This document shows positions 20,482 to 61,054 of a DNA stretch of 64,000 nt, in pieces. The stretch lies in sequence record MZ311864.1, one strand, 5' to 3'. Each line of letters opens with the position of its first letter. Within the stretch, counting starts at the first letter, position 1. The notes below the pieces were generated by a model. It had not been told where the DNA came from. It saw nothing but the letters and a program-made list of their open reading frames with translations, and did no database searches. The position numbers and the translations under genes are program-made. The DNA comes from Escherichia phage vB_EcoM_LNA4.

Positions 20482-20486
20482 CTTAT

Positions 20487-20628: not shown

Positions 20629-20646
20629 GAATAAGTGGGGTTAATT

Positions 20647-21012
20647 ATGGCAACAAAACAAGCACTTACCAAGCGTCGTAGAGGTAAGGGTCGTCCTTTA
20701 AAAGAGGAGTCTAACGCAATTCAGCTTGAGAAGAACATTCTTGATCTGAAAACAAAGATGATTGCTATGATCCCTGATGCACATATGGTCCTTCGTGATC
20801 TTATGATGAACAAGGATACTAAAGACAACATCCGTGAGAATATTGCTCGTTTCGTTATTGAGGAAGGTAAGCAAATGCTTTCTGATTACTTCGATGAAGA
20901 GAACGAAAATGAAGAAGAAACAAAGAACGTCGATGATGGTTCCGGAAAGGGCGCTGATAAACCAGTAGCAAAACCTTTCTCAACTGACATCGTACAGTTC
21001 AAACAAGGTTAA
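20647..21012 (+). CDS. hypothetical protein with basic N-terminus
   Basis: Track ORF trimmed to ATG 20647; TKRRRGKGRP basic segment, acidic C-terminal half. Confidence 0.45.
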   Translation: MATKQALTKRRRGKGRPLKEESNAIQLEKNILDLKTKMIAMIPDAHMVLRDLMMNKDTKDNIRENIARFVIEEGKQMLSDYFDEENENEEETKNVDDGSGKGADKPVAKPFSTDIVQFKQG

Positions 21013-21014
21013 TT

Positions 21015-21102
21015 GGGGCGGTTCCCGGAGCGGCAAACGGGCGGGATTGTAAATCCCTTGGCATCGCGTCCTTCGTAGGTTCGAGTCCTACTCGCCCCAC
21101 CA
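21015..21102 (+). tRNA. tRNA-Tyr (GTA), long variable arm
   Basis: Acceptor GGGGCGG/TCGCCCC, anticodon loop TTGTAAA, 17-nt variable arm, T-arm GTAGG-TTCGAGT-CCTAC, CCA. Confidence 0.55.
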
Positions 21103-21108
21103 ATTAAC

Positions 21109-21183
21109 GGGAGTATAGCTCAGTGGTAGAGCAAACGGTCGATAACCGTTAGGTCGCTGGTTCAAGCCCAGCTACTCCCACCA
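21109..21183 (+). tRNA. tRNA-Ile (GAT) with C33
   Basis: Canonical arms (GCTCAGTGGTAGAGC D-arm); anticodon loop TCGATAA has C at position 33. Confidence 0.5.
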
Positions 21184-21189
21184 ATTTAA

Positions 21190-21263
21190 GCGGTTAAGCA
21201 CAAGGTGTGTCGCAGGCCTTCCAAGCCTCGCAGAGTAGGGTTCGATTCCCTCTAACCGCTCCA
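21190..21263 (+). tRNA. tRNA-Gly (TCC)
   Basis: Acceptor GCGGTTA/TAACCGC; anticodon loop CTTCCAA; short D-arm; CCA. Confidence 0.55.
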
Positions 21264-21270
21264 AATAAAT

Positions 21271-21346
21271 GCTCCTATCGGCTAAACGGTCAGGCCGCCA
21301 GACTTTCAATCTGGAAATCCGAGTTCGATTCTCGGTGGGAGTGCCA
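21271..21346 (+). tRNA. tRNA-Glu (TTC)
   Basis: Anticodon arm CCAGA-CTTTCAA-TCTGG; T-arm CCGAG-TTCGATT-CTCGG; CCA. Confidence 0.6.
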
Positions 21347-21353
21347 AATTTGT

Positions 21354-21430
21354 AGGGACTTAGCACAATTGGCTAGTGCAGCGGATTCCAAATCCGCAGG
21401 TTCTGGGTTCGAATCCCAGGGTCCCTGCCA
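21354..21430 (+). tRNA. tRNA-Trp (CCA)
   Basis: Anticodon arm GCGGA-TTCCAAA-TCCGC; T-arm CTGGG-TTCGAAT-CCCAG; CCA. Confidence 0.6.
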
Positions 21431-21435
21431 GTTTT

Positions 21436-21511
21436 AGGAGGATGGTGTAATTGGTTAGCACACGGGGCTTTGATCTCCGGAGTTAGGGTTCGAGTCCTTA
21501 TCTTCCTGCCA
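21436..21511 (+). tRNA. tRNA-Gln (TTG)
   Basis: Anticodon loop CTTTGAT; T-arm TAGGG-TTCGAGT-CCTTA; CCA. Confidence 0.55.
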
Positions 21512-21625
21512 AGTTTGAGTGTTTTTATTTGAAAGCACTCATGCGTGGCCTAAGCATTTATCAGATGATGTTCAACCTGTGACGTTGAGGAAGTGGGAGC
21601 GATACCCACAGGTCACCCCAATTTT

Positions 21626-21718
21626 GGTGGAATGGTCGAGCGGTTTAAGACAGCACCTTGGAAAGGTGTCGGCCCCTTCAAACGGGGTCCGTAGGTTCGA
21701 ATCCTACTTCCACCGCCA
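21626..21718 (+). tRNA. tRNA-Ser (GGA), long variable arm
   Basis: Acceptor GGTGGAA/TTCCACC, anticodon loop TTGGAAA, ~21-nt variable arm, T-loop GGTTCGAATCC, CCA. Confidence 0.6.
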
Positions 21719-21732
21719 CTTTAGGAGATATT

Positions 21733-21888
21733 ATGCAGAAACTTTTGCGTTGTAAAAAGGTATTTGGACGCTGTAAGATTCACGGTAGTAACTGTGGTGT
21801 TGCAGATGAAATTCAATCAATCCCTATTACTCGTGCGAAAGAAAAAGCAGATCTTCGTAAAGAAATTAAAGAACAATTGGAAGATTAA
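21733..21888 (+). CDS. small Cys-rich hypothetical protein
   Basis: 51-aa ORF (track ORF trimmed to ATG 21733, AGGAG Shine-Dalgarno); its last codons overlap the 5' end of the next tRNA. Confidence 0.35.
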   Translation: MQKLLRCKKVFGRCKIHGSNCGVADEIQSIPITRAKEKADLRKEIKEQLED

Positions 21889-21969
21889 CCCTAACGGTAA
21901 GGGATCTCTTTGCTAAAGAGACAGTAGCCCCTGAAAAGGGGTGTGTCAGTTCAAGTCTGACATCTTCCT
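21879..21969 (+). tRNA. tRNA-Ser (GCT), long variable arm, CCA not fully encoded
   Basis: Acceptor GGAAGAT/ATCTTCC, anticodon arm TCTCT-TTGCTAA-AGAGA, variable arm with CCCC/GGGG stem, T-arm GTCAG-TTCAAGT-CTGAC. Confidence 0.5.
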
Positions 21970-21971
21970 CC

Positions 21972-22060
21972 GGAGAGCAGGCTGCATGGTGCAGACTCCG
22001 GTTTGAACCCGGTCCCATCGTAGCGATACGGTGACAGTTCGATTCTGTTGCTCTCCTCCA
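21972..22060 (+). tRNA. tRNA-Ser (TGA), long variable arm
   Basis: Acceptor GGAGAGC/GCTCTCC, anticodon loop TTTGAAC, long variable arm, T-loop AGTTCGATTCT, CCA. Confidence 0.5.
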
Positions 22061-22065
22061 AATAT

Positions 22066-22152
22066 GGGTTGGTAGCCAAGCGGCGACGTATGTCTAAGGC
22101 ACTCGACTTTTAATCGAGGGATCGTTGGGTTCGAATCCCACCCGACCCACCA
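22066..22152 (+). tRNA. tRNA-Lys (TTT) with expanded D region
   Basis: Acceptor GGGTTGG/CCGACCC, canonical anticodon arm CTCGA-CTTTTAA-TCGAG, T-loop GGGTTCGAATCCC, CCA; about 10 extra nt in the D region. Confidence 0.45.
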
Positions 22153-22157
22153 TACAA

Positions 22158-22260
22158 CGGGACGATAGTTTAATGAGGCTGGAAATGCGACGGCAACCAG
22201 CGGAGCAGAATGACGGGCATCCAGGACCGTAGGTGAGGTGCAAACCCTCAGATCCCGCCA
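22158..22260 (+). ncRNA. structured tRNA-like element (unclassified)
   Basis: 5' CGGGA pairs with 3' TCCCG followed by CCA; internal hairpins including TGAGG-TGCAAAC-CCTCA; not foldable into a standard cloverleaf by hand. Confidence 0.2.
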
Positions 22261-22321
22261 AATTGAAATAAGTTAAAATAATCCTTGCAAAAGATTGTTT
22301 TCACTGATAAAGTAATTACAT

Positions 22322-22410
22322 GGTTCTTTGACCGAGAGGCCGATGGTAGCAGGCTGTTAACCTGCCTGGAGTAATCCACGACGAAGGTTCGAATCCTTCA
22401 GGAACCGCCA
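22322..22410 (+). tRNA. type-II (Tyr-like scaffold) tRNA with anticodon GTT and discriminator G73 (candidate Asn decoder)
   Basis: Acceptor GGTTCTT/AGGAACC, Tyr-like D region CCGAGAGGCCGATGGTA, anticodon arm GCAGG-CTGTTAA-CCTGC, 17-nt variable arm, T-loop GGTTCGAATCC, G73-CCA. Confidence 0.45.
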
Positions 22411-22453
22411 AATTAGGTGATACGCTACCTTAAGTGCGAACTTGAAAATTAAT

Positions 22454-22530
22454 GGGGCCGTGGCTGACAAGGTAATGGTGCCGCACTGTCTATGCGGAAA
22501 ATGAGGGTTCGATCCCCTTCGGTCTCGCCA
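22454..22530 (+). tRNA. tRNA-Asp (GTC)
   Basis: Acceptor GGGGCCG/CGGTCTC (with G-U pairs), anticodon arm CCGCA-CTGTCTA-TGCGG, T-loop GGGTTCGATCCCC, CCA. Confidence 0.5.
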
Positions 22531-22713
22531 ATTTGATATGTTGATGTAAATTGCCGGAAGGCACTCAAAATGAGTTCGACATATCAAACCAAATACGCTC
22601 TTGCAGGAAAGGTTAGCCTCCCTGCAATGTCACACTAGGTGATCAGAGCGGATCAAATTAGCTAGCCAGCGATACCAGTTGCAGTGTCTGGGACAATTAA
22701 AATTCTGCACCTT

Positions 22714-22791
22714 CGGAGCGTAGCGCAGTCTGGTCAGCGTGGGAGCCTTGGATGCTCTGGGTCGCAGGTTCGAATCCTGCCGCTCCGACCA
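22714..22791 (+). tRNA. tRNA-Pro (TGG)
   Basis: Acceptor CGGAGCG/CGCTCCG, anticodon loop CTTGGAT, T-loop GGTTCGAATCC, CCA. Confidence 0.6.
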
Positions 22792-22796
22792 ATTTA

Positions 22797-22872
22797 GCAG
22801 GTATAGTTCAACTGGACAGAGCATCAGTTTACGAAGCTGAGAATCGGGGTTCGAATCCCTGTATCTGCACCA
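22797..22872 (+). tRNA. tRNA-Arg (ACG)
   Basis: Acceptor GCAGGTA/TATCTGC, anticodon arm TCAGT-TTACGAA-GCTGA, T-loop GGGGTTCGAATCCCT, CCA. Confidence 0.6.
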
Positions 22873-22907
22873 AATTAAGGCTTGGATTTCTTCGGACCCA
22901 AGCGCAC

Positions 22908-22984
22908 GGGCGATTGATGGAATTGGTATACGTGTCGGATTTAGATTCCGAATTTTGGGGGTTCGAGTCCCCTGTCGCCCACCA
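22908..22984 (+). tRNA. tRNA with anticodon TAG (Leu-type) in a short-variable-arm scaffold
   Basis: Acceptor GGGCGAT/GTCGCCC, anticodon arm TCGGA-TTTAGAT-TCCGA, 5-nt variable loop, T-loop GGGGGTTCGAGTCCCCT, A73-CCA. Confidence 0.5.
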
Positions 22985-22991
22985 ATCCTTC

Positions 22992-23067
22992 GGGACTGTA
23001 GCTCAGTTGGTAGAGCACCTGATTGAAGATCAGGGTGTCGGTGGTTCGAATCCACTCGGTCCCGCCA
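22992..23067 (+). tRNA. tRNA-Phe (GAA)
   Basis: Textbook cloverleaf: D-arm GCTCAGTTGGTAGAGC, anticodon arm CCTGA-TTGAAGA-TCAGG, T-loop GGTTCGAATCC, CCA. Confidence 0.7.
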
Positions 23068-23073
23068 AATAAT

Positions 23074-23146
23074 TGCGAGCTAGAATTCTGGTGAATTCAC
23101 GAGTCTCATAAGCTTGTTCAGAGGGGTTCGATTCCGCTGCTCGCAA
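23074..23146 (+). tRNA. tRNA-Met/Ile2 (CAT), CCA not encoded
   Basis: Acceptor TGCGAGC/GCTCGCA, D-arm GAAT/ATTC, anticodon loop CTCATAA, T-loop GGGGTTCGATTCC. Confidence 0.5.
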
Positions 23147-23163
23147 CTAACAGAGGACTTAAT

Positions 23164-32951: not shown

Positions 32952-35573
32952 ATGGCAGATTACAATGATAAGGTCGTTAACGCCGAACTGATCCTCCCAG
33001 AGGGCGGTGCGGGGGAGACCTTTGTTGATGATGGTCAATTCCACACGGAAGACACGACCACCGTCACACTTCTCGGTAATGGTACATCCACTACCCCACT
33101 GAAGGCAACTGTTATTGTAGATCCTGCTTCCGGAAACGCACTTGTAGCTGGCTCTGACGGTCTTTCCGTTGGTGTCAGTACAATCAGTGACAACCTGCTT
33201 GTATTGGCGGGTGGAAAGCTGTATGTTGCTCCTCCTCAGATCGTCATCCCAATTTCTACTAAGACTGGAAACACTCTAGTAGAAGTCACCGACCCAGGTG
33301 AAGAGGGGCTATATGTCCCGCCGGGTGAAAAGGGTGATAAAGGGGATCAGGGGCCGCAAGGTGAACCGGGTGTCGGTATTTACATCCAAGGTATTGTTGG
33401 AGATCCATCCCAACTACCGCCTGCATCAACAATGCAGGAAGGCGATACATACGTTATTGGAACACACTACTGGACTGTTGTAAACCAGCAATGGGTTGAC
33501 CTTGGTGACTTCGCTGGTCCACAGGGACAGGACGGTATCGGCTTGGTAATCAAAGGATCTTTCACCGACACTGCATTCCTTCCGCAAGATGGGAACACCG
33601 AAGGTGATACCTACATCATCCAGGAACAGATGTGGGTTTGGACAGGAAATGAAGACGGCTGGCAACCAGTTGGGCAAGTTGGACCAACAGGCCCACAGGG
33701 TGCTACTGGTGCTACAGGCCCACAGGGTCCTCAAGGTTTAAAAGGCGACAAGGGTGACAAGGGTGACCAAGGCCCTCAAGGTATTCAAGGCCTCACCGGA
33801 GAACAGGGTCCTCAAGGACCTAAAGGTGATAAAGGTGAAGATGCTGCCATTGTTAAACTGAAAGGTACTAAAGCCACTGAAGCTGATCTTCCGGCTTTCG
33901 GTAATGCTGTCGCTGATGCTTGGGTTGTACAGGAAAACAACCACGTATGGGTTTGGACATCAGATGGTGCCTGGGAAGATATTGGCCCTGTACAGGGTCC
34001 GAAGGGTGATCAAGGTGATGTTGGCCCTCAAGGACCACAGGGACAGAAAGGCGACCAAGGTCCAATCGGCCCTGATGGTGCCCCTGGCCCAGCAGGTGCT
34101 GAAGGCCCTCAAGGTATTCAGGGTCCAATCGGCCCTAAAGGTGACAAAGGCGATACAGGTCTAACTGGTCCAGTAGGCCCACAAGGTCCAGTTGGACCAA
34201 AGGGTGACCGTGGCGAAACAGGTTATGGTGCTCGCGTTCTTGGTACTAAAGGCTCAACCGTCGATCTTCCAGCTACAGGAACACCTGGTGACGCATGGAT
34301 CATTGTGCCTAACCTTTACGTCTGGAGTCAGTCTGATGCTCAATGGATCAACGTAGGTCCTTATGTAGGACCGAAGGGTGATAAAGGCGATACTGGGGAT
34401 GTTGGTGCAACAGGCCCTAAAGGTGATACTGGCGCTGATGGGCCGCAGGGTCCACAGGGTGATGTTGGCCCCCAAGGACCAGCAGGTGCTGATGGAGCAC
34501 AAGGACCAGAGGGACCTATGGGTGTTGCTCTTGTTCCGAAAGGTACTGTAGCTAGCCAAGCTGCATTGCCGACAGGTGCATCGCACGGGGATTATTACAC
34601 AACTGATGACACCGGGGAAGGCTTTGCTTTTGATGGTTCCGGTTGGATTAATCTTGGTGTTATGAGAGGTCCTCAAGGGGATCAAGGTCCACAAGGGCTA
34701 CAGGGCGACACGGGGCCACAAGGTCCGAAGGGCGACACAGGACTTACAGGACCAACAGGACCGCAAGGCCCTCAAGGTGAAATGGGTCCTGGTGTAGAGA
34801 TCATCGGCAAACTGGACAACAGTTCTGAACTACCTTCAACAGGTACATTAGGCCAGGGATACCTGATCAATGGTGACTTCTGGGGGTGGACAGGAACAAC
34901 CTACGAAAACCTTGGACCTATTCAAGGACCTCAAGGTGATGTTGGTCCAGCAGGACCAACTGGTCCACAGGGTAGCCAAGGGATTCAGGGTGTTAAGGGA
35001 GACCAAGGTACACTTTGGTTAAACTTTGCACGTAACCCAGGCCCTGCTGATGGTCGTGTTGGGGATTACTTCATTAACAAATCTACACTTGAATATTTCC
35101 AGAAAACCTCTGCTACGGTATGGGCTTCTCTCGGATATATGGGTGGTGGTAACGTTTATGATACCTCCTCTACCACACCACAAGCTCGTACAAGTTCAGG
35201 TTGGGTGGATGTTCCAGTTCTTGAAGCACCTACTGATAGCGGTTATTATGTTCGTGTAAACAGCGCATGGAAGAAGCTTGATCGTTACGATCTTCTTGTT
35301 ACCTCCACGACTGGTGCAATGGACGTTAACGTATCACAAGTGTTCAAAGTCGATGGTACTGCAAACAAGACCATGAGCTTTACAAACCTCCCTGCTGACC
35401 GAGCGATGACAATCGTGATCGTGTTTACTGGTTCCGGTGCGTCACTGACGTGGCCTGGAAACCTTGCATGGTCAAACGGTACGTCAGTAACTCTTGGAAC
35501 AACCCGTACAGTGGTGACTATCCTTTGGGATGGCACAAACCTGACAGGTACTACATCCTTAACGGTTAACTGA
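32952..35573 (+). CDS. collagen-like repeat fibre protein
   Basis: 873-aa protein with many Gly-X-Y tracts (GDKGDQGPQG, GPQGPQGLKGDKGDKGDQGPQG, etc.) interrupted by non-collagen segments. Confidence 0.6.
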   Translation: MADYNDKVVNAELILPEGGAGETFVDDGQFHTEDTTTVTLLGNGTSTTPLKATVIVDPASGNALVAGSDGLSVGVSTISDNLLVLAGGKLYVAPPQIVIPISTKTGNTLVEVTDPGEEGLYVPPGEKGDKGDQGPQGEPGVGIYIQGIVGDPSQLPPASTMQEGDTYVIGTHYWTVVNQQWVDLGDFAGPQGQDGIGLVIKGSFTDTAFLPQDGNTEGDTYIIQEQMWVWTGNEDGWQPVGQVGPTGPQGATGATGPQGPQGLKGDKGDKGDQGPQGIQGLTGEQGPQGPKGDKGEDAAIVKLKGTKATEADLPAFGNAVADAWVVQENNHVWVWTSDGAWEDIGPVQGPKGDQGDVGPQGPQGQKGDQGPIGPDGAPGPAGAEGPQGIQGPIGPKGDKGDTGLTGPVGPQGPVGPKGDRGETGYGARVLGTKGSTVDLPATGTPGDAWIIVPNLYVWSQSDAQWINVGPYVGPKGDKGDTGDVGATGPKGDTGADGPQGPQGDVGPQGPAGADGAQGPEGPMGVALVPKGTVASQAALPTGASHGDYYTTDDTGEGFAFDGSGWINLGVMRGPQGDQGPQGLQGDTGPQGPKGDTGLTGPTGPQGPQGEMGPGVEIIGKLDNSSELPSTGTLGQGYLINGDFWGWTGTTYENLGPIQGPQGDVGPAGPTGPQGSQGIQGVKGDQGTLWLNFARNPGPADGRVGDYFINKSTLEYFQKTSATVWASLGYMGGGNVYDTSSTTPQARTSSGWVDVPVLEAPTDSGYYVRVNSAWKKLDRYDLLVTSTTGAMDVNVSQVFKVDGTANKTMSFTNLPADRAMTIVIVFTGSGASLTWPGNLAWSNGTSVTLGTTRTVVTILWDGTNLTGTTSLTVN

Positions 35574-47310: not shown

Positions 47311-48011
47311 TGGCATCAATTCAACGTATGGATGCTGCACTAAACCAATGGTTTGCTCGTCAGGCTCGTGATATCCACACAGGCCTGAGAGCCAGGGTTG
47401 TGGATGTGGATTATAATGTACCATCAGCAACCGTACAACCACTGGCTTCAACTAACTTCGATGATGGCACCGTAGACGCTTATCCTGCTGTTTTTGACGT
47501 CCCCCTGTCCATGCCTTCGGCTAACGGGGGAAAGGCTCGCCTGACGCTTCCTGTGAAGCCTGGTGATGTTGTAGGACTATCATTCTCTGAACGTAATGAG
47601 GGTGATGCAAATGACACGACAACCCACGGACTTTTTCCTGGTTGGTCAATCATTGGTGTACACAGTGATGGAAACGCGATGACCATTCACCCGGACAACG
47701 TGGAGTTATGGAACGACACTGTTCATTTCTCAATGACTCCGGAGGGGGACTTTACTTTAACAGGTCCACAAGGGACTTTCAAGGTAGATAAATCTGGTCA
47801 AATGCAATTCACAAACGGTGCTGCAACCTTGACAGCAAAGAGTGATGGGAATATCGAAATGAATGGTGCAAAGATCACCCCTGACGGGAACTTAATCACC
47901 GCCCGTGGTGTTAACATGAACGATTTCTATGATTACTTCATGCGACACACCCACCACTACACCTGGACGGACGGCTCTGGTCAGAGCGATACTGCCCGAC
48001 CTAACGCATAA
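47310..48011 (+). CDS. baseplate central spike protein (gpV-like)
   Basis: 233 aa; C-terminal His cluster HTHHY compatible with metal-binding spike tips; position upstream of baseplate genes. Confidence 0.4.
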   Translation: MASIQRMDAALNQWFARQARDIHTGLRARVVDVDYNVPSATVQPLASTNFDDGTVDAYPAVFDVPLSMPSANGGKARLTLPVKPGDVVGLSFSERNEGDANDTTTHGLFPGWSIIGVHSDGNAMTIHPDNVELWNDTVHFSMTPEGDFTLTGPQGTFKVDKSGQMQFTNGAATLTAKSDGNIEMNGAKITPDGNLITARGVNMNDFYDYFMRHTHHYTWTDGSGQSDTARPNA

Positions 48012-48020
48012 GGGGAATAA

Positions 48021-48638
48021 ATGGCAACTCTTTATTCTGACCTTCTAATGGACCCGGTTACTGGAGACCTTGATGTCTCCACGGGTCTTCAGATCATTGA
48101 GTCCAACCAGACAAGCCTCCGTCAAAGACTATGGCTTCGCTTCAACATCTGGGCTGGAAACTGGTATTTCGATGAGACTTTTGGTTTCCCATACCGAACA
48201 TATCTGAGCAAGAAGGTAATGAAAACTGTCCTTGACAACAAGATCAAGGAAGTGACCCGTCTTGAGCCTGACGTGCTTGAGATCACCTCATTCCACTCTT
48301 CAATGGATCGTACAACACGTAGTTACCAGGCCTTCTTCGAAGTAACAACTAAAGAGCAAGAGGTTGTAAGACTTGCTTTCGTAGGGCAGGATGAGTATTA
48401 TTACCCAATCCCTGATGAAGGTGCAACGGTTCTTTGTGACGACGATGGTTGGATTACGTGGGCTAACAAGCTTTACTACCTGATCAACTTCCGTCTGCCT
48501 CGCACTGGCGATGCTACATGGTGGAACACTTGGGCTGGTACGGATATTGATAACCCAATTCCGGTCGGTAGCCTGATGGATGACAAGAACAACGTCATCA
48601 CCACTGAAGATGGCAAGTCCATTAACCGTAACCACTAA
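48021..48638 (+). CDS. baseplate protein
   Basis: 205-aa ORF in the baseplate module. Confidence 0.35.
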   Translation: MATLYSDLLMDPVTGDLDVSTGLQIIESNQTSLRQRLWLRFNIWAGNWYFDETFGFPYRTYLSKKVMKTVLDNKIKEVTRLEPDVLEITSFHSSMDRTTRSYQAFFEVTTKEQEVVRLAFVGQDEYYYPIPDEGATVLCDDDGWITWANKLYYLINFRLPRTGDATWWNTWAGTDIDNPIPVGSLMDDKNNVITTEDGKSINRNH

Positions 48639-48648
48639 GGGGTAAATA

Positions 48649-49323
48649 ATGGCAGATGTTGCATTTCCAACAGTGAAGGTCTCTGACCTTCCTACTGCCG
48701 TCACCGTTTCCGGTGGCGATTTTGTTGTTACCGATCAGTCAGACACAACCAGAAAAGCTTCGCTGGACACAATTGTTTCCAAAATGAGCTTGACAAGAGT
48801 TGTGTTTTTTGCTGAGGGGGGTTATCTTGAGTCCAAAAAAGACCTCGCCTTCTTCGCAACTGATGGAAAATATTACACATGGAATGGGACTTACCCGAAG
48901 ACAATTCCAATGTCTTCATCCCCTGCGACAACCGGGGGAATTAGTTCTAATGCTTGGCAAGAGTTTGGTGCAAGTGGTGGAGGTAGCTCTACAGGTAAGG
49001 TTGTTAATTTAGGGAGCGTCCAGGGGACTGCAACCTGTAACCTTTCTCTTGGAGATACTTTCGTTGCTAATCTTACCTCCGGGCAGTGTGTGGTTGGTAT
49101 CACCAACCCATCTACCGCCCAAGGTATTTCCCAGACTTTCCAGTTATCTTTGACCCAAGGGACAGGTGCAAATCTCGTTTCATGGCCTAGTAACATTAAG
49201 TGGAACTATGGGCGAGAGCCAGTTCTTTCATACAAAACCGGAGTACGAGACATCTTCCAGTTCGTCACCTATGACGGGGGGAATACGTGGTTCGGCTCCC
49301 TCATTATGGCAGGAGTTGAGTAA
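48649..49323 (+). CDS. tail protein with conserved N-terminal anchor domain (short paralogue)
   Basis: N-terminal ~110 aa closely parallel those of the ORF at 52122 (PTVKVSDLPTA, GDFVVTDQSD.TRK, YTWNGTYPK). Confidence 0.4.
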   Translation: MADVAFPTVKVSDLPTAVTVSGGDFVVTDQSDTTRKASLDTIVSKMSLTRVVFFAEGGYLESKKDLAFFATDGKYYTWNGTYPKTIPMSSSPATTGGISSNAWQEFGASGGGSSTGKVVNLGSVQGTATCNLSLGDTFVANLTSGQCVVGITNPSTAQGISQTFQLSLTQGTGANLVSWPSNIKWNYGREPVLSYKTGVRDIFQFVTYDGGNTWFGSLIMAGVE

Positions 49324-52112
49324 TGGCAAAGTTAAGCCACAACATTGATAATGTGTTTCAGTTGATCGACGGACACATTCAGTTTCTTCAGAGAAACACC
49401 GGAGAGACAATCGATCCTACGGTTCAGCACTATATCCTGAACTTACAAAATGTTCTGGCTAACAACCGCCACTTCATCAACTGGACGGCGCAGGAAGCCC
49501 AACCAAATGGTGACGCAACAACCGAGGGTCAGTCAGTGCTGATCCTCGGCTGTGCTTATGCGTATCTCGCGTCTAATGACCCGAAATACCTTGAACTCGC
49601 AGAGGCCTATTGGCAGGCATATATCGACTGGTTCTTTGCGGGTCAGCCAATTCCTGATCCCCCTGCGGTATATCGCCCTAACTGGATCATTAATGGAAAA
49701 GAACCCCGCCTTGCTCACTACCCTCTTACCGATGATGGGTATCCAACCCACGGTGGTTTTAAGGGAAGTGTAATGTCATGGACAAACGGAAGAACCCTGA
49801 TCCCGCATGGCGCTCCTAATTGGGGTGAGTACCTTGACAAAGCTTGGTTTGCTTTTGACGGCAACCTTGGGTGGAACTCTGTCAACGCCACGGTGTATAA
49901 AGAAAACCCAGATGGAAGCACCAACTGGAATGAGTACGGTTCACAGTGGGATGTAGACTGGATCATTGATCGTCTGGGACGCAAGGTTGACTGGGATGGT
50001 AACATTCTCGAAGAGGGTCTTCCTGAATCCCAGTGGGGAACTGTTCAACTGAAGGATACCACAATCACGGGCAATTACAAGTTCAACTATGCGACATGTA
50101 ACCCTGTTGAGCATGGTGGATATCTGATGGGTAGAAATACCATGTGGCACAACCGCCCGGTTAACGTACCTATTGAAATGGGCTTCCAGGATAATGCCTC
50201 TGACGCAGAAACTTGGTGGTGCGATGCAAACTACGTGATGTATCAGATCACCGGGGAAAGAAAATACTGGCTTTGCTGGCAGTCTTCACTAATCGTCTGT
50301 GATAACTATTCAGATATCGACCGTTTTGACAAGTTCTTCCGTAAGTCAACATTCGCGACAATCCCATTCACCGACGGGATCAGTTATGACTACTCATATC
50401 CGTCAACGGCAATTCCTCAGTATTCTCGTGATTCTGATGGGTATATCGGTATTCGCCAAACTGTAGCAGCGCAAACTACCCTTGAGCAACAGGCAATCTG
50501 GTTCCGTGTTGACGGCACTTCAAAGCTCCGTGTTCAGTTCTCAGGGAAAGATGATGCTGGCAATGGGCTGCTATTCAGGCCAGAGCTTGATCTTAATAAA
50601 ACAAAATCTGAAACCGGAAGAGTAACCTATCGTTGTGGTCTTCCACGCGGTACAGACTCTATCGTTTCTATGGATATCCCCCTCTCAAACTTCGTGAGAC
50701 TAACCCCTCCGGGGGGCGGCAGTTACATTGTAGCAGACCCGCGTATTGTTGTTGATTGGGGATCTAACACGGTTATTGACTTCCAGTACCAGACAGGTAT
50801 CCTTGGAAGAATCAATGACCAAGCTTGTACGCTTGTGACCGATGCAGATGGTGGATGCACTATTGGTTTCTGGTTAACAGATACCGAGACCGCCGATCTT
50901 TCAGCGTTCACATACCGTTCTTATGCAGACAATTTTAACATTACCATCACCGACGACAACCTGTGGAGATGGTGGGCTATGGTTCCTGCGACCAACGGGG
51001 ATTGGACAACGCTCCAGTTGTCTCCGTCAAACTTTGTACTCAGCAGTTACCAACCCGACCACCCGGAAACAGATCCTAAACCAAACCAGATCAGTCTTCA
51101 CAATCTGAAGCAGATCAACTTGGCACCGGACACAGATCCGGTTGATGGTGTTAGCGCGAAGATCGACTGGTACTGTATCAACGCAGTTCCTGAGTTATAC
51201 ACCTCCACAGGTGGTGATGACTACACGATGTATTTCCGTATCACCGTGTCCGGGGACAACGCGTACAATGCTAAACTGGGCGACTGCACGATCATCGACT
51301 ACAAGACTAACAGCCTGTATTACACCCCAGGGTTGATTCCATTCTCTAACATTAGTGACCCTAACACGGCACTTTATGATGGGTGGCGAGGTCTTCCATA
51401 CCCAGGATATCAGTACCCAACCCTGTACTGCTTCAAAGGCCAGAATATCGACTGGACAAGGTTGAATAGTACGATTGATTTCCTGTACGACTCACAGATG
51501 TGGTTTTATAACACATTCCACCCTGTTATGCCGGGGCCTATGGCACAGGCATTTGTATGGGATCGATGGGATGCCCGTAAATATGGTCAACCAAACACCT
51601 TCACCATGAAACACTGGAACGAGAAGGCTTGGGACGGCTATGAGGCTCGTGCTTTCTTCTGTGTGTGTCGTTGCATCTATGAACTCTCTCAGCGTGGTGA
51701 GTCCATTCCTAGCAAGCTATTTACTGTTGCGAAGAACTGGGTTGATTATCTGAAGTGGTTCCAAGACAACAACGAGGGCCGTACCCCAACAATCTTTAAC
51801 CCTGACGGTACTGTTCTGGCACCAGAGGATGACTTTACAAGCCACATGTCAGCGTTGTTCATGGGTGGTTGCTCCATCCTCGGAATGGCGGGGATGCGTA
51901 ACCGTATTCCTAATATTGACATTGTGGCGGAGCGTTGTTTCAGTCTGATCCAAGAGAACTACATCATTCTTACTGCCAATCACCCTATGAATGGTAGCTG
52001 GTCTGTTGCCCCTCGTGCAGATACTGACAATGGGATGTTCTTTGGCTTCCATGCTGGGGAACTGTTACGAGGATTTGGACTGTATGCTATGTACAGAAAC
52101 CTTACAAGATAA
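49323..52112 (+). CDS. large tail protein (929 aa), function unknown
   Basis: Trp/aromatic-rich ORF between two anchor-domain genes. Confidence 0.4.
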   Translation: MAKLSHNIDNVFQLIDGHIQFLQRNTGETIDPTVQHYILNLQNVLANNRHFINWTAQEAQPNGDATTEGQSVLILGCAYAYLASNDPKYLELAEAYWQAYIDWFFAGQPIPDPPAVYRPNWIINGKEPRLAHYPLTDDGYPTHGGFKGSVMSWTNGRTLIPHGAPNWGEYLDKAWFAFDGNLGWNSVNATVYKENPDGSTNWNEYGSQWDVDWIIDRLGRKVDWDGNILEEGLPESQWGTVQLKDTTITGNYKFNYATCNPVEHGGYLMGRNTMWHNRPVNVPIEMGFQDNASDAETWWCDANYVMYQITGERKYWLCWQSSLIVCDNYSDIDRFDKFFRKSTFATIPFTDGISYDYSYPSTAIPQYSRDSDGYIGIRQTVAAQTTLEQQAIWFRVDGTSKLRVQFSGKDDAGNGLLFRPELDLNKTKSETGRVTYRCGLPRGTDSIVSMDIPLSNFVRLTPPGGGSYIVADPRIVVDWGSNTVIDFQYQTGILGRINDQACTLVTDADGGCTIGFWLTDTETADLSAFTYRSYADNFNITITDDNLWRWWAMVPATNGDWTTLQLSPSNFVLSSYQPDHPETDPKPNQISLHNLKQINLAPDTDPVDGVSAKIDWYCINAVPELYTSTGGDDYTMYFRITVSGDNAYNAKLGDCTIIDYKTNSLYYTPGLIPFSNISDPNTALYDGWRGLPYPGYQYPTLYCFKGQNIDWTRLNSTIDFLYDSQMWFYNTFHPVMPGPMAQAFVWDRWDARKYGQPNTFTMKHWNEKAWDGYEARAFFCVCRCIYELSQRGESIPSKLFTVAKNWVDYLKWFQDNNEGRTPTIFNPDGTVLAPEDDFTSHMSALFMGGCSILGMAGMRNRIPNIDIVAERCFSLIQENYIILTANHPMNGSWSVAPRADTDNGMFFGFHAGELLRGFGLYAMYRNLTR

Positions 52113-52121
52113 GAGGAATTA

Positions 52122-54260
52122 ATGGCAGAACTATTACCTACCGTCAAGATTTCGGACCTGCCGACTGCGACGGATTCTTTCGAGGGAGATTTTCTGGTTG
52201 TTGACCAATCGGATGCTACACGTAAATCCACATGGTCAAGCCTGTTTTCCCGCTTCGGTGTTATGCGTATGTTCTCATTCCAGGATGGTGGTACGCTGAC
52301 CTCCGCTAAGGACCAGGTAATTGACCGAACAACCAACAAGGTATACCAGTGGACGGGGACTTACCCTAAGCTGGTCCCTGCTAACTCAACCCCGGAAAGC
52401 ACCGGGGGTGTTGGCACCGGAGGGTGGTCAGTTAACGATCCTTCTCTCCGTGGAGACCTTGCCGGGATCAACGGATCAACCTACGTTGGTGGCCCTGCGG
52501 GTACGGTGGCACAATCCCTTGATGGGTTTGTAACACCCTCTCAGTTTGTTGGGAAATACCCATCAACAAGTGAAGCAGTAACTGCAATGGTTGCTTATGC
52601 GAAAACCAACAAGAAAGCTATTCTGGCTTGGGGCTGGGAACTGACACTAGAGACAAGTGTTTACATCGACGGTGTAGAGTGGTATGGTGGTGCATTCAAC
52701 CAGTCCGGCGGTAACCGCTATATGTACTTGTCAAACAGTACATTCCGTTGGACTACCTTTACTGGGGTTTGTACCCGCCACTACGGTGGGCGACTGATCA
52801 TCACTGATTCTGCTTGGTTAAACAACACAAACACAGCAGCAATGCTGATTCAGGCACTCCCTGTTGATGGTACAATTGACATTCTTGACAGTGATTTCCG
52901 TGGGTGTAAATACGGTATCCTGCAACAAGGTACTGGCGCTCTGATCACCCGTGCTCGTTTTGCTCGACTGAACTTCAATGATTTGACAGGCGATGCGATT
53001 GAGTGTAACGTTGTTAACCGTCACTACAAAGCGGGTGGTTTGACAATCGAAGATATCAACATTGACAATATCAACAACACAGACAACTCTCCTAACTGGG
53101 GTATCGGTATCGGTGTTGCTGGTCAGGGTCCATACGGTGCCAACGCTTCCGATGACCAGTACGTCAGTGGGATCATCATTCGTAACGTCAAGATGCGCCG
53201 TGTACGTCAGTGTATCCACTTCGAACTTTGCCGAGATTTCAAGGTAGAGAACGTAGAGGTTTACCCGGACGCTTCCGTTTCTAACGGTACACTTCTGGCA
53301 TCGGGCGGTGTTGTTTGCTACGGCTCTAAAGACTTCATCATTGATGGTGTTCGTGGAGAGATGGTTAATGGTGCAACACGCTTCATTTACTTTGGTTGGG
53401 GTGTTAACGCCGGAACATATGCTGCTCCGTGTCGTGACTTTACGTTGAGAAACGTTAGAACCCACACTGGGCTGGTAGACATCCCTGTGAGTGCCAGAGA
53501 TGACTGGACTAACACTGTGACGGTTGAGGATGTCGAGTGCGACACCTTCAAATACCGTGGTCTTGTTTCACGTCTTCGTCTTGCAGACATCCGTTGCAAT
53601 CTCTTTGATGGTATCGGTGACTACGAGGCAGGCCAAGGTGAGGCAGGTGGGGCTATGAAACGCTGGGCTTGGTGTTCTGCCGAGATCCTGAATATCAACA
53701 GCCTTGATGCTAACGGTGTTGCGAACGGTAGTTTTGGACAGGTTGGCTTCGACCATGTTACGACATACGGTTGTAACTTTGACGTAGTTCAACACTCCAA
53801 GACAAATGGTAACCGTGGTGTTACACTGTTGAACGCTGGGAACATTTACATCGCTGATAACGACCTTTTCCCACAAGGTAAAGAGTTCGTGAAAGGTGAC
53901 ATCATTCTTAAAAAGACTGGTGGTTTATTCGTTGTTGAAACTGGAGGTTCCTACATTGAAGCAAATGACTTTATCCGTGCTACAACAGTCGGATCTAAGA
54001 CCATTCAATGTGCTGCCGATTCCGGAGTAAGTCAGCCTTGGGCGACTCGTGCGTTTAAATCCGCAGGTCTCCAGTTGACCATCCCAGGAGCAGGCGCTGG
54101 AGGTACAGACCTGAAGACAACCGTCATTCGCGCTCCATATCAAAACGGGGCCTGGACAACACCGTTCTATCTGGATATTGCTGATCCTATTCAGACAGCC
54201 ACTCCTGATAATACGGCTCTTGTTTCAACAAACCCGGTAGTATACAGCGAAAGGACTTAA
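52122..54260 (+). CDS. tailspike-like protein (N-terminal anchor + beta-helix-like body)
   Basis: 712 aa; N-terminus paralogous to the ORF at 48649; the body has many Gly/Asn/Val-rich repeats typical of beta-helix tailspikes. Confidence 0.45.
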   Translation: MAELLPTVKISDLPTATDSFEGDFLVVDQSDATRKSTWSSLFSRFGVMRMFSFQDGGTLTSAKDQVIDRTTNKVYQWTGTYPKLVPANSTPESTGGVGTGGWSVNDPSLRGDLAGINGSTYVGGPAGTVAQSLDGFVTPSQFVGKYPSTSEAVTAMVAYAKTNKKAILAWGWELTLETSVYIDGVEWYGGAFNQSGGNRYMYLSNSTFRWTTFTGVCTRHYGGRLIITDSAWLNNTNTAAMLIQALPVDGTIDILDSDFRGCKYGILQQGTGALITRARFARLNFNDLTGDAIECNVVNRHYKAGGLTIEDINIDNINNTDNSPNWGIGIGVAGQGPYGANASDDQYVSGIIIRNVKMRRVRQCIHFELCRDFKVENVEVYPDASVSNGTLLASGGVVCYGSKDFIIDGVRGEMVNGATRFIYFGWGVNAGTYAAPCRDFTLRNVRTHTGLVDIPVSARDDWTNTVTVEDVECDTFKYRGLVSRLRLADIRCNLFDGIGDYEAGQGEAGGAMKRWAWCSAEILNINSLDANGVANGSFGQVGFDHVTTYGCNFDVVQHSKTNGNRGVTLLNAGNIYIADNDLFPQGKEFVKGDIILKKTGGLFVVETGGSYIEANDFIRATTVGSKTIQCAADSGVSQPWATRAFKSAGLQLTIPGAGAGGTDLKTTVIRAPYQNGAWTTPFYLDIADPIQTATPDNTALVSTNPVVYSERT

Positions 54261-54267
54261 ATAACAA

Positions 54268-54288
54268 GGGGCTTCGGCCCCTTTTCTC
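54268..54288 (+). terminator. rho-independent terminator GGGGC-TTCG-GCCCC + T-run
   Basis: Immediately after the tailspike stop. Confidence 0.6.
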
Positions 54289-54368
54289 ATTATAAGCCTT
54301 TATAATTAAATCACAATATGATAAAATAGCAACATCTTAGAGCAAAAATCTAGCAAGAGGAGGCGTTC

Positions 54369-55862
54369 GTGGCTGCTCAATATGGATTAAACGACTACGG
54401 CTTTGCGATCCCATCCCTTGATGATCTAATCGCAGATACAAAGCAGTCACTAATCCGAACTTTCGGTGAGAACTTCAACACACAGTCAAACACTATTGTT
54501 GATAAGCTTACCACAATTTTGAATGAAAGGGAGTACCAGTTAATCCTTCTGGCTGCGGCTGTGTATTCTGCACAGACCCTTGCAGGTGCTGAAGGTATTT
54601 ACCTGGATGAACTGCTTGGTCGTCGTGGTATTTATCGTCGTGGGAAAACAAGAGGCTCCGGTACGGTACAGATGGTTGTAAACAACACTGTGCCATACAA
54701 CATGATCTACAGTGCTGCAACATATAGCATCGACAGTGGCAACTTCGTACTTAACCAAGACACCCCGGTAGCTGGTAATATCCTTGCACAGCAAATCCTG
54801 AACCCGGACTGGGTGCTTGGTAACTACACCTTCCAGATGATGAACCAGAATGATGGTACAACTAAGACAATGGCCCTGACCCTGAGCAACAAAACGCCTA
54901 ACAGCGCTCAGATGAATGCCTTTATGTCTTCCATCAAAGACTTTATCATCCAGAACACCACGCAGTTAAACGAAGACAGAATCTTCATTGATTCTGCCAA
55001 CGGTGCTCTGTATATTGGTTATGATGCCAACAAAAAAATGATCGGTCTTAACAGCCGTGTTGATTTTCGTTCCTCCCCAGTTATCGGGCAGAGAACGATC
55101 ACGATGGATGTTATTGCCGCTGAAGCTGGTGAGATCTCTCGTGAAGCAAACACCGTAACAAACATCAGCCCAACCCCAAGTGGCTTTATCAGTATGACGA
55201 ACATGGCTGCATTTAACGATGGGTCAGACGTTGAAACCGATACAGACTACAAGGTCCGTGCTGCTAACAGTACAGCCGCTGGCGCTGCTGCTACCCGTCC
55301 TGCTGTCATCTCTGCTGTTCTTAACGTAGAGGGTGTCAGCAAGGTCCGTGTGTTCTCTAACAACACCGGATCAACGGATCAGTATGGTGTGCCTGCATAT
55401 AAGTTCGAAACTGTTGTGTATGGTGGTTCAACTGAGGATATCAGTCAAGCGCTTTATAACACAATTGCATTATCCAACGCAACCTATGGTAATGTCTTCT
55501 ATGATATCACCACAGAGGATGATCAGACAGAACGAATTTTCCACAGTAAGGCTCAGGCCCGTGAACTCGCACTTCGCGTTCGTTACAAAGGGAAACTTCT
55601 CTCAGTCACAGAGCAAAACACAATCAAAGATGCTTTGAAGGCAGTTGTTGATCCTTTAAACATCGCAGACACCCTGTACAACATTCAGTTGGTATCTGCG
55701 GTAGGTTCTTCAATCTCTCCTGGTCGATTCACTCAACTGTTTGTTGATGTAAAGAATGTTGGTCAACCAGACAGTTCCTACACAAACAGCGATGTGGTGG
55801 CCGGGATGACACAAGTCTTCGCACTGGATACAGACGACATCACCTTCCAGCAAATCATCTAA
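54369..55862 (+). CDS. baseplate protein (J-like)
   Basis: 497-aa ORF with GTG start after AGGAGG; position upstream of the fibre genes. Confidence 0.35.
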   Translation: MAAQYGLNDYGFAIPSLDDLIADTKQSLIRTFGENFNTQSNTIVDKLTTILNEREYQLILLAAAVYSAQTLAGAEGIYLDELLGRRGIYRRGKTRGSGTVQMVVNNTVPYNMIYSAATYSIDSGNFVLNQDTPVAGNILAQQILNPDWVLGNYTFQMMNQNDGTTKTMALTLSNKTPNSAQMNAFMSSIKDFIIQNTTQLNEDRIFIDSANGALYIGYDANKKMIGLNSRVDFRSSPVIGQRTITMDVIAAEAGEISREANTVTNISPTPSGFISMTNMAAFNDGSDVETDTDYKVRAANSTAAGAAATRPAVISAVLNVEGVSKVRVFSNNTGSTDQYGVPAYKFETVVYGGSTEDISQALYNTIALSNATYGNVFYDITTEDDQTERIFHSKAQARELALRVRYKGKLLSVTEQNTIKDALKAVVDPLNIADTLYNIQLVSAVGSSISPGRFTQLFVDVKNVGQPDSSYTNSDVVAGMTQVFALDTDDITFQQII

Positions 55863-55872
55863 CGAGGTAAGC

Positions 55873-56505
55873 ATGGCAGATTATCTAAAGGATGTCAACC
55901 ACATCCATACTCTGCCAGATTTCGTACAGGGTGGTATTGATTACCTCCCTGGCGATTTTCTGAAAGAGAAAGAAAACCTTGTCAAGTTCATGACGGTATA
56001 TCTCGAAAGACTTAAAGCAATTGACGAAATGTGGGTCAATCTGTCTGAAGGTAGATTACTGAAGAATGCAACTGGTGTCAACCTCGATGAGATTGGCAAG
56101 CAGGTGGGGATTGAGCGTAACGGTCTTAGCGATATGAACTATCGTGCGATCATCATCATCCTCCTTGCGAGTGCTGCGAAGCACGGTACAAGACCAGAGG
56201 TTATTGACACACTTGACCAACTGTTCGGGACAGGAAATTTCACCACGTATAAGGGTGACAACTACCGTTTCGACATTAACATTTCAAAGACGTGTTTTGA
56301 ATTGGAGACAGCCCTCCAGGAAATCCAAGACATGTTGCCTATGCCTACCCACCTGAGACTCACAGAGTCCAGCGGTACGGCTTTTGGTTTCTCAGGCGAT
56401 AAGTATGCACTTGGGTTTGGTTCAGTCCACTCAGGTGGTCGTACAGGTGAAGGTGGCCTTGCACACCTGACATATACGTCTGATGAAGAGAATACCTTGA
56501 TTTAA
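55873..56505 (+). CDS. baseplate/tail protein
   Basis: 210-aa ORF between the J-like and fibre genes. Confidence 0.35.
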   Translation: MADYLKDVNHIHTLPDFVQGGIDYLPGDFLKEKENLVKFMTVYLERLKAIDEMWVNLSEGRLLKNATGVNLDEIGKQVGIERNGLSDMNYRAIIIILLASAAKHGTRPEVIDTLDQLFGTGNFTTYKGDNYRFDINISKTCFELETALQEIQDMLPMPTHLRLTESSGTAFGFSGDKYALGFGSVHSGGRTGEGGLAHLTYTSDEENTLI

Positions 56506-59245: not shown

Positions 59246-61054
59246 GTGGCAGATATGACTCAATTTGAACAGGCTGTTGATCAGGTCATCGAAGACTCTG
59301 AACGCCTGCACAAAGTTGTCAACGGAACGGCTTCTGAAACTGTTGTTACTGAAGATGGTAGCACCATCCCAACAGTTCGTAAAGCACTTCTCGACAACTT
59401 ATTTTTCAAGACACCGCCTATTCCTTGGGTAGCCGGGTCTCAGGCAACGGTCTTTAACCAGCTTTACGCATTCAACGGTACAAATGGTATCCAGTGGTGG
59501 TATGCACCTGGTGCAACAGCAACCACCCCTGTAACCCTGCCTGCAAACCCATCTACCAGTGTAAGCTGGAGACTGTATAATGATGCGGCTGCGATGGCTT
59601 CCATCTATGCCCCTATCAACAGCCCGATCCTGACTGGTAACCCGCAGGCACCTACCCCTGCTGCTAACAGCAACAGCACCACGATTGCAACAACAGCCTT
59701 TGTGACAACAGCAATTGCAAGCGCACTGTCCAGCATCTCTGGTGGTAGCGTTACTTTTGCAAACGTAACTGTCTCTGGGGCAACAACACTGAATACCCTT
59801 ACCGTCAACGGCACAACTACGTTAAACGGTCCGGTGAACGCAGACAACTCTACGGGTCGTTTCCAGAACCTGATCTTGACTAAGCAGGCCTCCAGCCTGA
59901 CATTTGTCTACACAGATGCTGCTAACCCGACATTCTTCAAGACACGTCTTGATCCTTACGCGATCCAGACCCATAACCTGCAAACAGACATTATTGTCAA
60001 CGGTACAGTTTCCGCTGATGACACCACAATGTCAATGACGGGTGTTGGTAACAACGTCTTCGATTATGTTTATATTCGCGGTAATAACGCGAAAGATATC
60101 TCTGCTCCACGACTGAAAGTTTCAGGGATGACTGAGGTAGAGAACCTTCACATCACAGGCTCTGTAACTGGTTTAAGCTTCAGTGTAAATGGCTTAGATA
60201 TCAGCCCTAACTCTGTAACAACCACAGCAGGTATCACCGTAGGTTCCGATCTGCAAGTGAACGGGTCTGCAACGCTGGGGAACACCACGGTTTCAAGTCT
60301 TGAAGTGATCAATACCCTGAAGGTAGATGGTTCTACAACGCTTGTTGACTTCACAGCTTCAAGTGGTACAATCACAGGGCCTTTCACTGTCGGGGGACTA
60401 AGCAACCTGAATGGTGGTTTCACTACAGGATCAGCCAACGGTACAATCGGCGGCAACCTTTCTGTAACCGGATCAACAGAGCTTCTTTCTGGTCTGAATG
60501 TAACTGGCGATGTTGCGATCACTGGTAACCTATCAGCGACTGGCGATGTCAACCTGAATAACGGTTCCGGAACAACAACTGTCAACAACCTTGTGATCCA
60601 AGGTACTGTGACAGGGCTTACTGTTGACCTGACCGGACAATCCATCAGTGTGGCATCCTTGACCGCAACAGGATCTGTGACGACAGCAACACTGACTGTT
60701 CAGGATAGTGCAGACCTTCCTAATGCCCGTGTTGGATTCTTGACGCTGGTTGCGGAAGATGTTGAGAGTTCCACTGCGAACTGGACCCCAAGCGGGACAT
60801 CCAACATCTATACGGTTCTGGTTGACGCAGACCTGACAATCGGTGCATGGCCTTCTCCACCTAACGCATTCTCTGCAATGATTTACCTGACGCAGGATGC
60901 AACCGGAGGACACACGGTAACACTCGACCCTAACTATCTGGTGCTTAACAGCGAAACAATTAACCAGACAGCAGGGTCTGTGACTATTCTTCAACTTACC
61001 TACAACGGGGTTGAAGATGGGGTTATCGACACAGTGATTGTTCGTCGTCCATAA
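59246..61054 (+). CDS. tail fibre protein
   Basis: 602-aa Thr/Asn/Gly/Val-rich repetitive protein; GTG start after AAGGAG. Confidence 0.5.
   Translation: MADMTQFEQAVDQVIEDSERLHKVVNGTASETVVTEDGSTIPTVRKALLDNLFFKTPPIPWVAGSQATVFNQLYAFNGTNGIQWWYAPGATATTPVTLPANPSTSVSWRLYNDAAAMASIYAPINSPILTGNPQAPTPAANSNSTTIATTAFVTTAIASALSSISGGSVTFANVTVSGATTLNTLTVNGTTTLNGPVNADNSTGRFQNLILTKQASSLTFVYTDAANPTFFKTRLDPYAIQTHNLQTDIIVNGTVSADDTTMSMTGVGNNVFDYVYIRGNNAKDISAPRLKVSGMTEVENLHITGSVTGLSFSVNGLDISPNSVTTTAGITVGSDLQVNGSATLGNTTVSSLEVINTLKVDGSTTLVDFTASSGTITGPFTVGGLSNLNGGFTTGSANGTIGGNLSVTGSTELLSGLNVTGDVAITGNLSATGDVNLNNGSGTTTVNNLVIQGTVTGLTVDLTGQSISVASLTATGSVTTATLTVQDSADLPNARVGFLTLVAEDVESSTANWTPSGTSNIYTVLVDADLTIGAWPSPPNAFSAMIYLTQDATGGHTVTLDPNYLVLNSETINQTAGSVTILQLTYNGVEDGVIDTVIVRRP

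Follow-up and report, generated by a model that had tools for sequence, protein, structure and literature searches.

The locus considered here raises the question of why two neighboring tail genes of one phage encode the same N-terminus, and what role belongs to the protein encoded between them. It lies at positions 48,649-54,260 of a 64,000-nucleotide stretch of Escherichia phage vB_EcoM_LNA4 (sequence record MZ311864.1); this whole stretch was analyzed and is referred to as the window. Three open reading frames (ORFs) on the + strand make up the locus: a 224-amino acid (aa) protein (48649-49323), a 929-aa protein (49323-52112), and a 712-aa protein (52122-54260). The favored answer, with a probability of roughly 0.68, is that a two-part N-terminal head mounts two different appendages on the virion and that the 224-aa protein serves as an adaptor for the 929-aa protein. 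The evidence that carries this answer is the paralogy of the two heads, the identity of their domains, the mosaic distribution of the parts among phages, and the strict adjacency between the small protein's C-terminal domain and the 929-aa family.

A shared two-part head

BLASTP with composition-based statistics aligns residues 1-103 of the 224-aa protein with residues 1-102 of the 712-aa protein at E=8e-28, with 48/103 identities (47%), 64% positives, and one gap. An initial annotation of this DNA had proposed that the two N-termini align and had left the significance of the similarity to a formal alignment; both points hold, with an alignable length of 103 residues in place of the ~110 given there. 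Four of its motifs, PTVK[VI]SDLPTA, GDF[VL]V[TV]DQSD[TA]TRK, Y.W.GTYPK, and S.P..TGG, are found as quoted. The fifth, DGG.L.S.KD, is present but was misquoted, the correct form being [DE]GG.L.S.KD (the 224-aa protein has EGGYLESKKD). All other high-scoring segment pairs have E>10, so the C-terminal parts of the two proteins are unrelated, as the annotation had stated. Similarity by chance or through low complexity is refuted by the E value and by the composition-based statistics behind it, by the retention of the pair in four other genomes, and by Pfam scores above the gathering threshold.

The module is present exactly twice in the window. A tblastn search with either N-terminus against the whole 64 kb returns two copies (E about 1e-27), the next match having E=0.95, and hidden Markov models (HMMs) for each half of the module also give two; a third copy was not found. 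The longest identical DNA run between the copies is about 11 nt, and they are therefore old paralogues; recent duplication or gene conversion between them is rejected on the same ground. Cronobacter phage vB_CsaM_GAP31 (GAP31), Salmonella phage PVP-SE1, FENT2, and EspYZU12 hold the same pair, with 51-55% identity between the anchor peptides and 40-48% between the domains. By these sequence comparisons the two heads are stably maintained as well as old.

The module consists of two elements, an anchor peptide of ~47 aa and the Pfam domain Tail_spike_N. The anchor peptide occupies residues 1-47 of the 224-aa protein (48649..48789, +; local HMM E=9e-26) and residues 1-46 of the 712-aa protein (52122..52259, +; E=1e-24), with 51% identity between the two. 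In both proteins it reads [LF]PTVK[VI]SDLPTA, 6-7 variable residues, and GDF[VL]V[TV]DQSD[TA]TRK. The Tail_spike_N domain follows at residues ~48-110 of the 224-aa protein (48790..48978, +) and ~47-108 of the 712-aa protein (52260..52445, +). PF18668 scores 44.7 bits for residues 53-107 of the former and 57.9 bits for residues 51-103 of the latter, against a curated gathering threshold of 25 bits. The two elements are separable: the same anchor peptide was found in two proteins of phi92, gp140 and the endosialidase gp143, neither of which has the domain, and gp151 of that phage carries Tail_spike_N but not the peptide. The lack of a Tail_spike_N domain in gp140 distinguishes it from the 224-aa protein. 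The ~105-residue head, or merely its first ~47 residues, appears to be a mounting tag.

Tail_spike_N of the 712-aa protein gives phmmer matches to the tailspike heads 9occ, 9lna, 5w6h, 8x8m, and 4oj5, and the region matches the heads of CBA120 TSP1/3/4 and G7C gp63.1 by sequence and fold. Judged from sequence and models, residues ~48-108 of both proteins are the equivalent of D2 of the CBA120 tailspike head (D1-D2), with matches both to PF18668 and to the D2 regions of TSP1, TSP3, and TSP4. The branched TSP1-4 assembly of CBA120 (Ackermannviridae) resembles the system described here in that one phage carries several appendages with a common head and different enzymatic bodies. CBA120 heads have a role in assembly, and TSP1 and TSP3 bind their partners via the head (PMC8825819). 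However, the domain is preceded here by the 47-aa peptide, which has no detectable similarity to CBA120 D1, and the baseplate is of the Mu/P2-like wedge type, as in phi92. Pfam finds no XD (T4 gp10-like) domains in the proteins of the locus.

The remainder of the 712-aa protein is a neck and a putative colanidase body (52446..54260, +). Its residues 113-708 align with chain residues 30-620 of phi92 gp150 (PDB 6E0V) at a phmmer E value of 1.1e-109, the body having 36% identity over 603 aa to gp150 residues 208-798, and the protein falls in PHROG 6117, "colanic acid degradation". Hydrolysis of colanic acid has been reported for phi92 gp150, and by this homology the 712-aa protein is a colanic-acid-degrading tailspike of the gp150 type. 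Residues 1-207 of phi92 gp150 give no alignment with the 712-aa protein.

The small protein and its probable 929-residue partner

The 224-aa protein continues past its head with a Gly-rich linker and a beta domain of ~110 aa (48979..49323, +), which is proposed to dock the 929-aa protein. This C-terminal domain has neither a Pfam family nor a PDB sequence homologue. Its core motif, QG.G.N...W......W.....P.L, is invariant across Vibrio, Pseudomonas, and Escherichia phages. A tblastn search finds the 929-aa protein in 531 phage records and the 113-aa C-terminal domain in 527, at one place in each. The counts run in parallel by host genus (929-aa protein/C-terminal domain: Escherichia 242/239, Salmonella 103/100, Vibrio 62/60, Erwinia 33/33, Campylobacter 23/23, Cronobacter 12/12). 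In all records found with both queries, the small gene lies next to the large one, upstream of it and in the same orientation.

For each unfused 929-aa homologue examined, the ORF immediately upstream is matched by an HMM of the C-terminal domain. The lineages covered were Seunavirus, Vequintavirus, phi92-like phages, an SU10-like podovirus contig, the T7-like Yersinia phage phiR8-01, Rosemountvirus, the Felix-O1-like Erwinia phage phiEa21-4, an Enterobacter prophage, in which the domain terminates a 560-aa protein, and a P2-like Pseudomonas prophage. The small upstream proteins have the same end domain throughout, and their N-termini are lineage-specific and mutually unrelated: the N-terminus of the T7-like podovirus (Autographiviridae) protein aligns with none of the others, and another is annotated as Felix-O1-fiber-like. 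The adjacency has one exception, a P2-like element with a direct fusion of the 929-aa family to the wedge protein gpI. The fusion was found in a metagenomic P2-like element (L019, 6001-9294) and also in P0264, where P2 gpI (PF09684) stands N-terminal to a 929-aa-family protein and there is no small adaptor gene. The gpI fusion therefore locates the 929-aa family to the periphery of the baseplate.

In the window the 224-aa stop codon and the 929-aa start codon overlap as TAATG, with GGAG 8 nt upstream. The rV5 proteins gp41, gp42, and gp43 are all virion proteins by mass spectrometry (PMC3606486), and the rV5 genes gp43/gp42/gp41 and the PVP-SE1 genes gp51/gp50/gp49 are direct orthologues of the 224-aa/929-aa/712-aa genes, except that the third gene of rV5-like phages encodes a 1266-aa hypervariable lateral fiber, not a colanidase. 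The 929-aa protein belongs to the phi92 gp141/rV5 gp42 family. It has no Pfam match, no PDB homologue by sequence, and no recognizable anchor of its own. It is modeled as an (alpha/alpha)6 glycosidase-like toroid with beta-sandwich inserts, the fold matches having a sequence identity of just 8-11%. Taken together, gene adjacency suggests that the C-terminal domain physically binds the 929-aa protein, and the ~110 aa are probably a docking domain for it and not a receptor binder. The initial annotation described the 929-aa protein as sitting between the two head-bearing proteins; the position is right, but the protein is no bystander, given that the C-terminal domain stands directly upstream of its unfused homologues in all lineages examined.

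Adaptor-enzyme pairs are known from other phages. In G7C gp66-gp63.1, in the adaptor and endosialidase of K1E/K1-5, and in T4 gp10-gp12, a small or proximal anchor protein docks a larger enzyme and the genes are adjacent; in the locus described here it is gene adjacency that points to such docking. The parts differ, however, as the putative docking domain is a distinct domain of ~110 aa without a Pfam or PDB sequence relative, and the partner is predicted to be an (alpha/alpha)6 toroid, not a beta-helix trimer.

Two other identities of these proteins were rejected. The NGR-binding "poly-GlcNAc deacetylase" fiber of Vequintavirinae (PMC8594841) is not the 929-aa protein, because a 2026 preprint assigns that fiber to the phi92 gp142 type, both a gp142 homologue and the GMSHY motif are absent from the window, and the 929-aa fold is an (alpha/alpha)6 toroid. 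Also dismissed was a relation between the 224-aa/929-aa pair and gp64-gp65, the heterodimer of the non-contractile N4 sheath, as a profile search gave no match; the one weak local match, from a three-protein search, pairs 929-aa residues 120-175 with gp64, the smaller N4 subunit (L012, 6758-8011; 36% identity over 56 aa, E=6e-4).

Relatives of the 929-aa protein show further variety. The protein has 78% identity to phi92 gp141, from a different subfamily, and 37% to the orthologue of rV5-like Bas58, from the same subfamily, and the history of the gene is therefore incongruent with taxonomy. Six homologues (P0255, P0259, P0261, P0263, P0276, and P0279) reach 1425-1620 aa through long C-terminal extensions, some with fiber-like repeats and one with PF21722; the toroid protein may serve as a proximal shoulder for further distal domains. 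Gene 70 of Erwinia phage phiEa21-4, annotated as "proximal tail fiber subunit" (L011, 1601-3106), shares a segment with the beta-sandwich region of the 929-aa family (profile positions 471-639, E=1e-47).

Proposed mounting of the two appendages

According to the favored model, the ~105-residue head, composed of the anchor peptide of rV5/phi92-like phages and Tail_spike_N, would mount two different appendages, both presumably trimeric, at the wedge periphery. The first would be a one-protein tailspike in which the 712-aa chain supplies head, neck, and colanidase body. The second would consist of two proteins, the 224-aa adaptor (head, Gly-rich linker, and 110-aa C-terminal domain) recruiting the anchorless, (alpha/alpha)6 glycosidase-like 929-aa protein, whose gene would be translationally coupled to that of the adaptor. 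The 497-aa Baseplate_J wedge protein is a candidate docking partner; phi92 fibers I and III attach to the C-terminal domain of its homologue gp145. That the module binds the baseplate is suggested by position, in a slot beside the wedge genes, and by low-resolution phi92 maps; the head would dock on the wedge periphery or on a neighboring appendage.

Several results weigh against this model. A profile search finds no PDB sequence homologue of the anchor peptide, and in an AF2 monomer model the peptide of the 224-aa protein has pLDDT (per-residue model confidence) <50. Two to three different proteins per genome bear the same anchor, and the choice of site by each is unexplained. A module variant is present in the small contig L020 together with P22-type (PF27050) and Dam genes, and no rV5-type baseplate genes are visible on that contig; the module need therefore not have one and the same docking partner in all phages. 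For the proposed adaptor role, a mirror-tree comparison of pairwise identities in the 929-aa protein and the C-terminal domain gives a weak correlation (Spearman 0.23, p=0.19; Pearson 0.36) and thus no clear sign of co-evolution. Additionally, the C-terminal domain was not found in natural fusion with the 929-aa protein; the longer homologues are extended at the C-terminus or have a P2 gpI domain at the N-terminus.

The 224-aa and 712-aa proteins could alternatively be two independent receptor-binding proteins, each recognizing the host through its C-terminus, with the 929-aa protein as an unrelated third tail protein that has its own attachment. The same head on unrelated C-termini would fit such an arrangement, as would the PHROG label "tail fiber protein" for proteins of this kind. 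However, each genome has a single copy of the C-terminal domain, located only immediately upstream of a 929-aa homologue, across very different hosts and morphotypes, and its core motif stays the same in phages of three host genera, whereas a receptor tip would be expected to vary with the host. The 929-aa protein, with no recognizable anchor and a start codon that overlaps the stop of the 224-aa gene, is also a poor fit, which makes independent receptor binders improbable. A branched assembly is the strongest competitor, although it is still considered unlikely. In this arrangement a single head would sit on the baseplate, and the second head would attach to the appendage mounted there, on the pattern of the CBA120 TSP complex or of G7C gp66-gp63.1, so that the two heads have different partners. 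CBA120 heads of this type bind other tailspikes and not the baseplate (PMC8825819), and identities of only about 50% between the paralogues in all genomes are consistent with distinct partners.

A further possibility is that the shared N-terminus, as head and neck, only nucleates trimerization or folding, or that it signals to an assembly chaperone, with virion attachment located elsewhere. The N-terminal triple beta-helix of CBA120 TSP4 is required for trimerization (PMC8825819), the predicted disorder of the anchor peptide in the monomer would suit such a function, and so would the L020 variant, which lies outside the rV5-like phages. However, the 6E0V chain has no counterpart of the head, its alignment to the 712-aa protein being confined to residues 113-708, and the colanidase body therefore evidently folds without it. 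The 224-aa protein has no other part able to attach it, and the module always stands at residue 1 upstream of unrelated bodies, the usual place of an attachment domain. A pure folding role is the least probable of these three alternatives to the model of two mounted appendages.

An extension of the two-appendage model is put forward more tentatively, at somewhat less than even odds. The C-terminal domain would be an undescribed, widely mobile docking domain that forms, with the 929-aa protein, a portable two-gene appendage cassette for myo-, sipho-, and podovirus tails and P2-like prophages, in which only the N-terminal anchor of the small protein is swapped; phi92 fiber II is predicted to be a gp140-gp141 complex. 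Fiber II, which attaches beside fiber I (assigned to gp143), was left unassigned by a 2026 cryo-electron microscopy (cryo-EM) study (maps PMC13450770), and a gp140-gp141 complex was not tested there. This complex is a candidate for fiber II, and the prediction is checkable on the existing maps.

Exchange of distal parts and the surrounding locus

An HMM of the two heads was searched against 1.8 billion representative proteins and gave 1970 matches, mostly to the Tail_spike_N part only. The whole module at residue 1 is present in about 20 clusters, with protein lengths of 214-1599 aa. Among twelve whole-module proteins all N-terminal pairs align (28-98% identity) and most distal parts are unalignable; P0017, for example, has 74-77% identity to P0019 and P0021 in the head and no similarity to them past it. 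Beta_helix, Peptidase_S74, and Collar are among the Pfam domains on the distal parts of module proteins. The third-gene orthologue of rV5-like phages, for the 1266-aa lateral fiber, is one of the genes reported as hypervariable in the genus (PMC8594841). The same N-terminus thus heads unrelated distal parts both within and between genomes. The reverse is also observed, as the colanidase body carries the module here and an unrelated N-terminus of 207 aa in phi92 gp150, which is encoded downstream of the short-fiber genes. The PVP-SE1 GenBank record calls gp49 a "putative fusion protein" with an N-terminus like rV5 gp43 and a C-terminus like a colanic-acid-degrading protein.

Within Seunavirus, all three genes show conservation, with identities of 75-99%, and the head no more so than the bodies. 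A recombination hot spot within the genus was rejected, as domain-wise identities have no mosaic boundary at the module edge. Comparison of the locus across related phages, which the initial annotation had suggested, does make distal-part swapping visible, between genera only. Its picture of a conserved module with exchangeable distal domains applies between genera, where distal parts are mosaic and the colanidase sits on another N-terminus, but not within Seunavirus, where the locus is conserved. In the same way, its host-range locus is a cassette at the scale of genera and not of strains.

The window is placed by DNA identity in the genus Seunavirus (subfamily Vequintavirinae) and is a myophage of the rV5/PVP-SE1-like type. 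Region 48000-56000 has 93.6% DNA identity over its full length to GAP31, and 81-89% to Escherichia phage 4MG, PVP-SE1, and other members of the genus. GAP31 annotates the three genes as "tail fiber protein" (GAP31_221), "tail protein" (GAP31_222), and "colanic acid degradation" (GAP31_223), and flanks them with the gene of a 205-aa protein and a "baseplate wedge subunit" gene. In the window the upstream edge is formed by a 205-aa sheath-initiator (gp25-like) protein (48021..48638, +), which has the PHROG 4233/120 label "baseplate wedge subunit" and a tblastn match to phi92 gp139, the sheath initiator according to the phi92 cryo-EM paper; its homologues in the metagenomic loci L009 and L021 match Pfam PF10934 Sheath_initiator. 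The downstream edge is formed by the 497-aa Baseplate_J wedge protein (54369..55862, +; Pfam PF04865; 32% identity to phi92 gp145 over 505 aa). It is followed by a 210-aa wedge protein (55873..56505, +; DUF2612, Pfam PF11041), a phi92 gp146 homologue by position that corresponds to the GAP31 "baseplate protein" after the wedge gene.

The order of sheath initiator, gp140-like gene, gp141-like gene, and wedge genes is common to the window and phi92. The colanidase of the window, with its gp140/gp143-type anchor and Tail_spike_N, differs in occupying the slot of phi92 gp142 and gp143. Module-bearing genes lie directly 3' of the sheath-initiator gene in all rV5/phi92-like loci inspected, namely the window, GAP31, rV5-like Bas58, phi92, PD06, KB57, L009, and L021. 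Judged from this gene order, the locus is the variable receptor-binding slot of rV5/phi92-like phages and runs from the sheath-initiator gene to the wedge genes. In Klebsiella phage KB57 (Mydovirus; L008, 6842-14136) the 224-aa and 929-aa cassette is absent and the slot holds three anchor-peptide proteins, one of which is annotated as a colanidase and has the anchor without a Tail_spike_N domain.

Conserved anchors with exchangeable tips are textbook phage biology. The N-terminal similarity is already on record in the PVP-SE1 GenBank entry, and Tail_spike_N is a curated Pfam family. The paralogy as such is a correct but ordinary and incremental observation, and its extension is moderately interesting. 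In the literature searched there is no description of a separable 47-aa anchor peptide common to gp140- and gp143-type proteins, of how strictly the C-terminal domain and the 929-aa family are paired across morphotypes, or of the resulting suggestion for phi92 fiber II. The several host-recognition appendages of the rV5, PVP-SE1, and phi92 phage groups make these phages candidates for therapy and biocontrol; the assignment of genes to appendages and the mounting of these are still unsettled. The ~105-residue head, or its first ~47 residues, offers a concrete junction for swaps of depolymerase bodies, and the 224-aa and 929-aa proteins are probably one unit for engineering and modeling.

Other features of the window were noted. 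Six bases past the colanidase stop codon and ahead of the wedge gene, a GC-rich hairpin (AAGGGGCTTCGGCCCCTT) is followed by a T run (54266..54283, +); it is terminator-like by consensus match only and has a terminator look on either strand. A 602-aa tail fiber protein (59246..61054, +) has the other anchor type, as on the phi92 colanidase: its N-terminus (59258-59578) matches phi92 gp150 residues 10-114 with 51% identity, and its C-terminus (60737-61048) matches the C-terminus of phi92 gp151 with 47% identity. Relative to phi92 this protein is a mosaic, with a gp150-type N-terminus and a gp151-type C-terminus. Several weak tblastn matches (25-35% identity) to central phi92 gp151, annotated as predicted coiled-coil, fall at 33534-35459 and suggest a repetitive fiber-like protein encoded upstream of the tail genes. 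The window also contains 22 clustered tRNA genes at 17029-23147, each of them on the + strand. The GC skew changes sign near ~12000, negative before and positive after, which is consistent with a switch of the coding strand.

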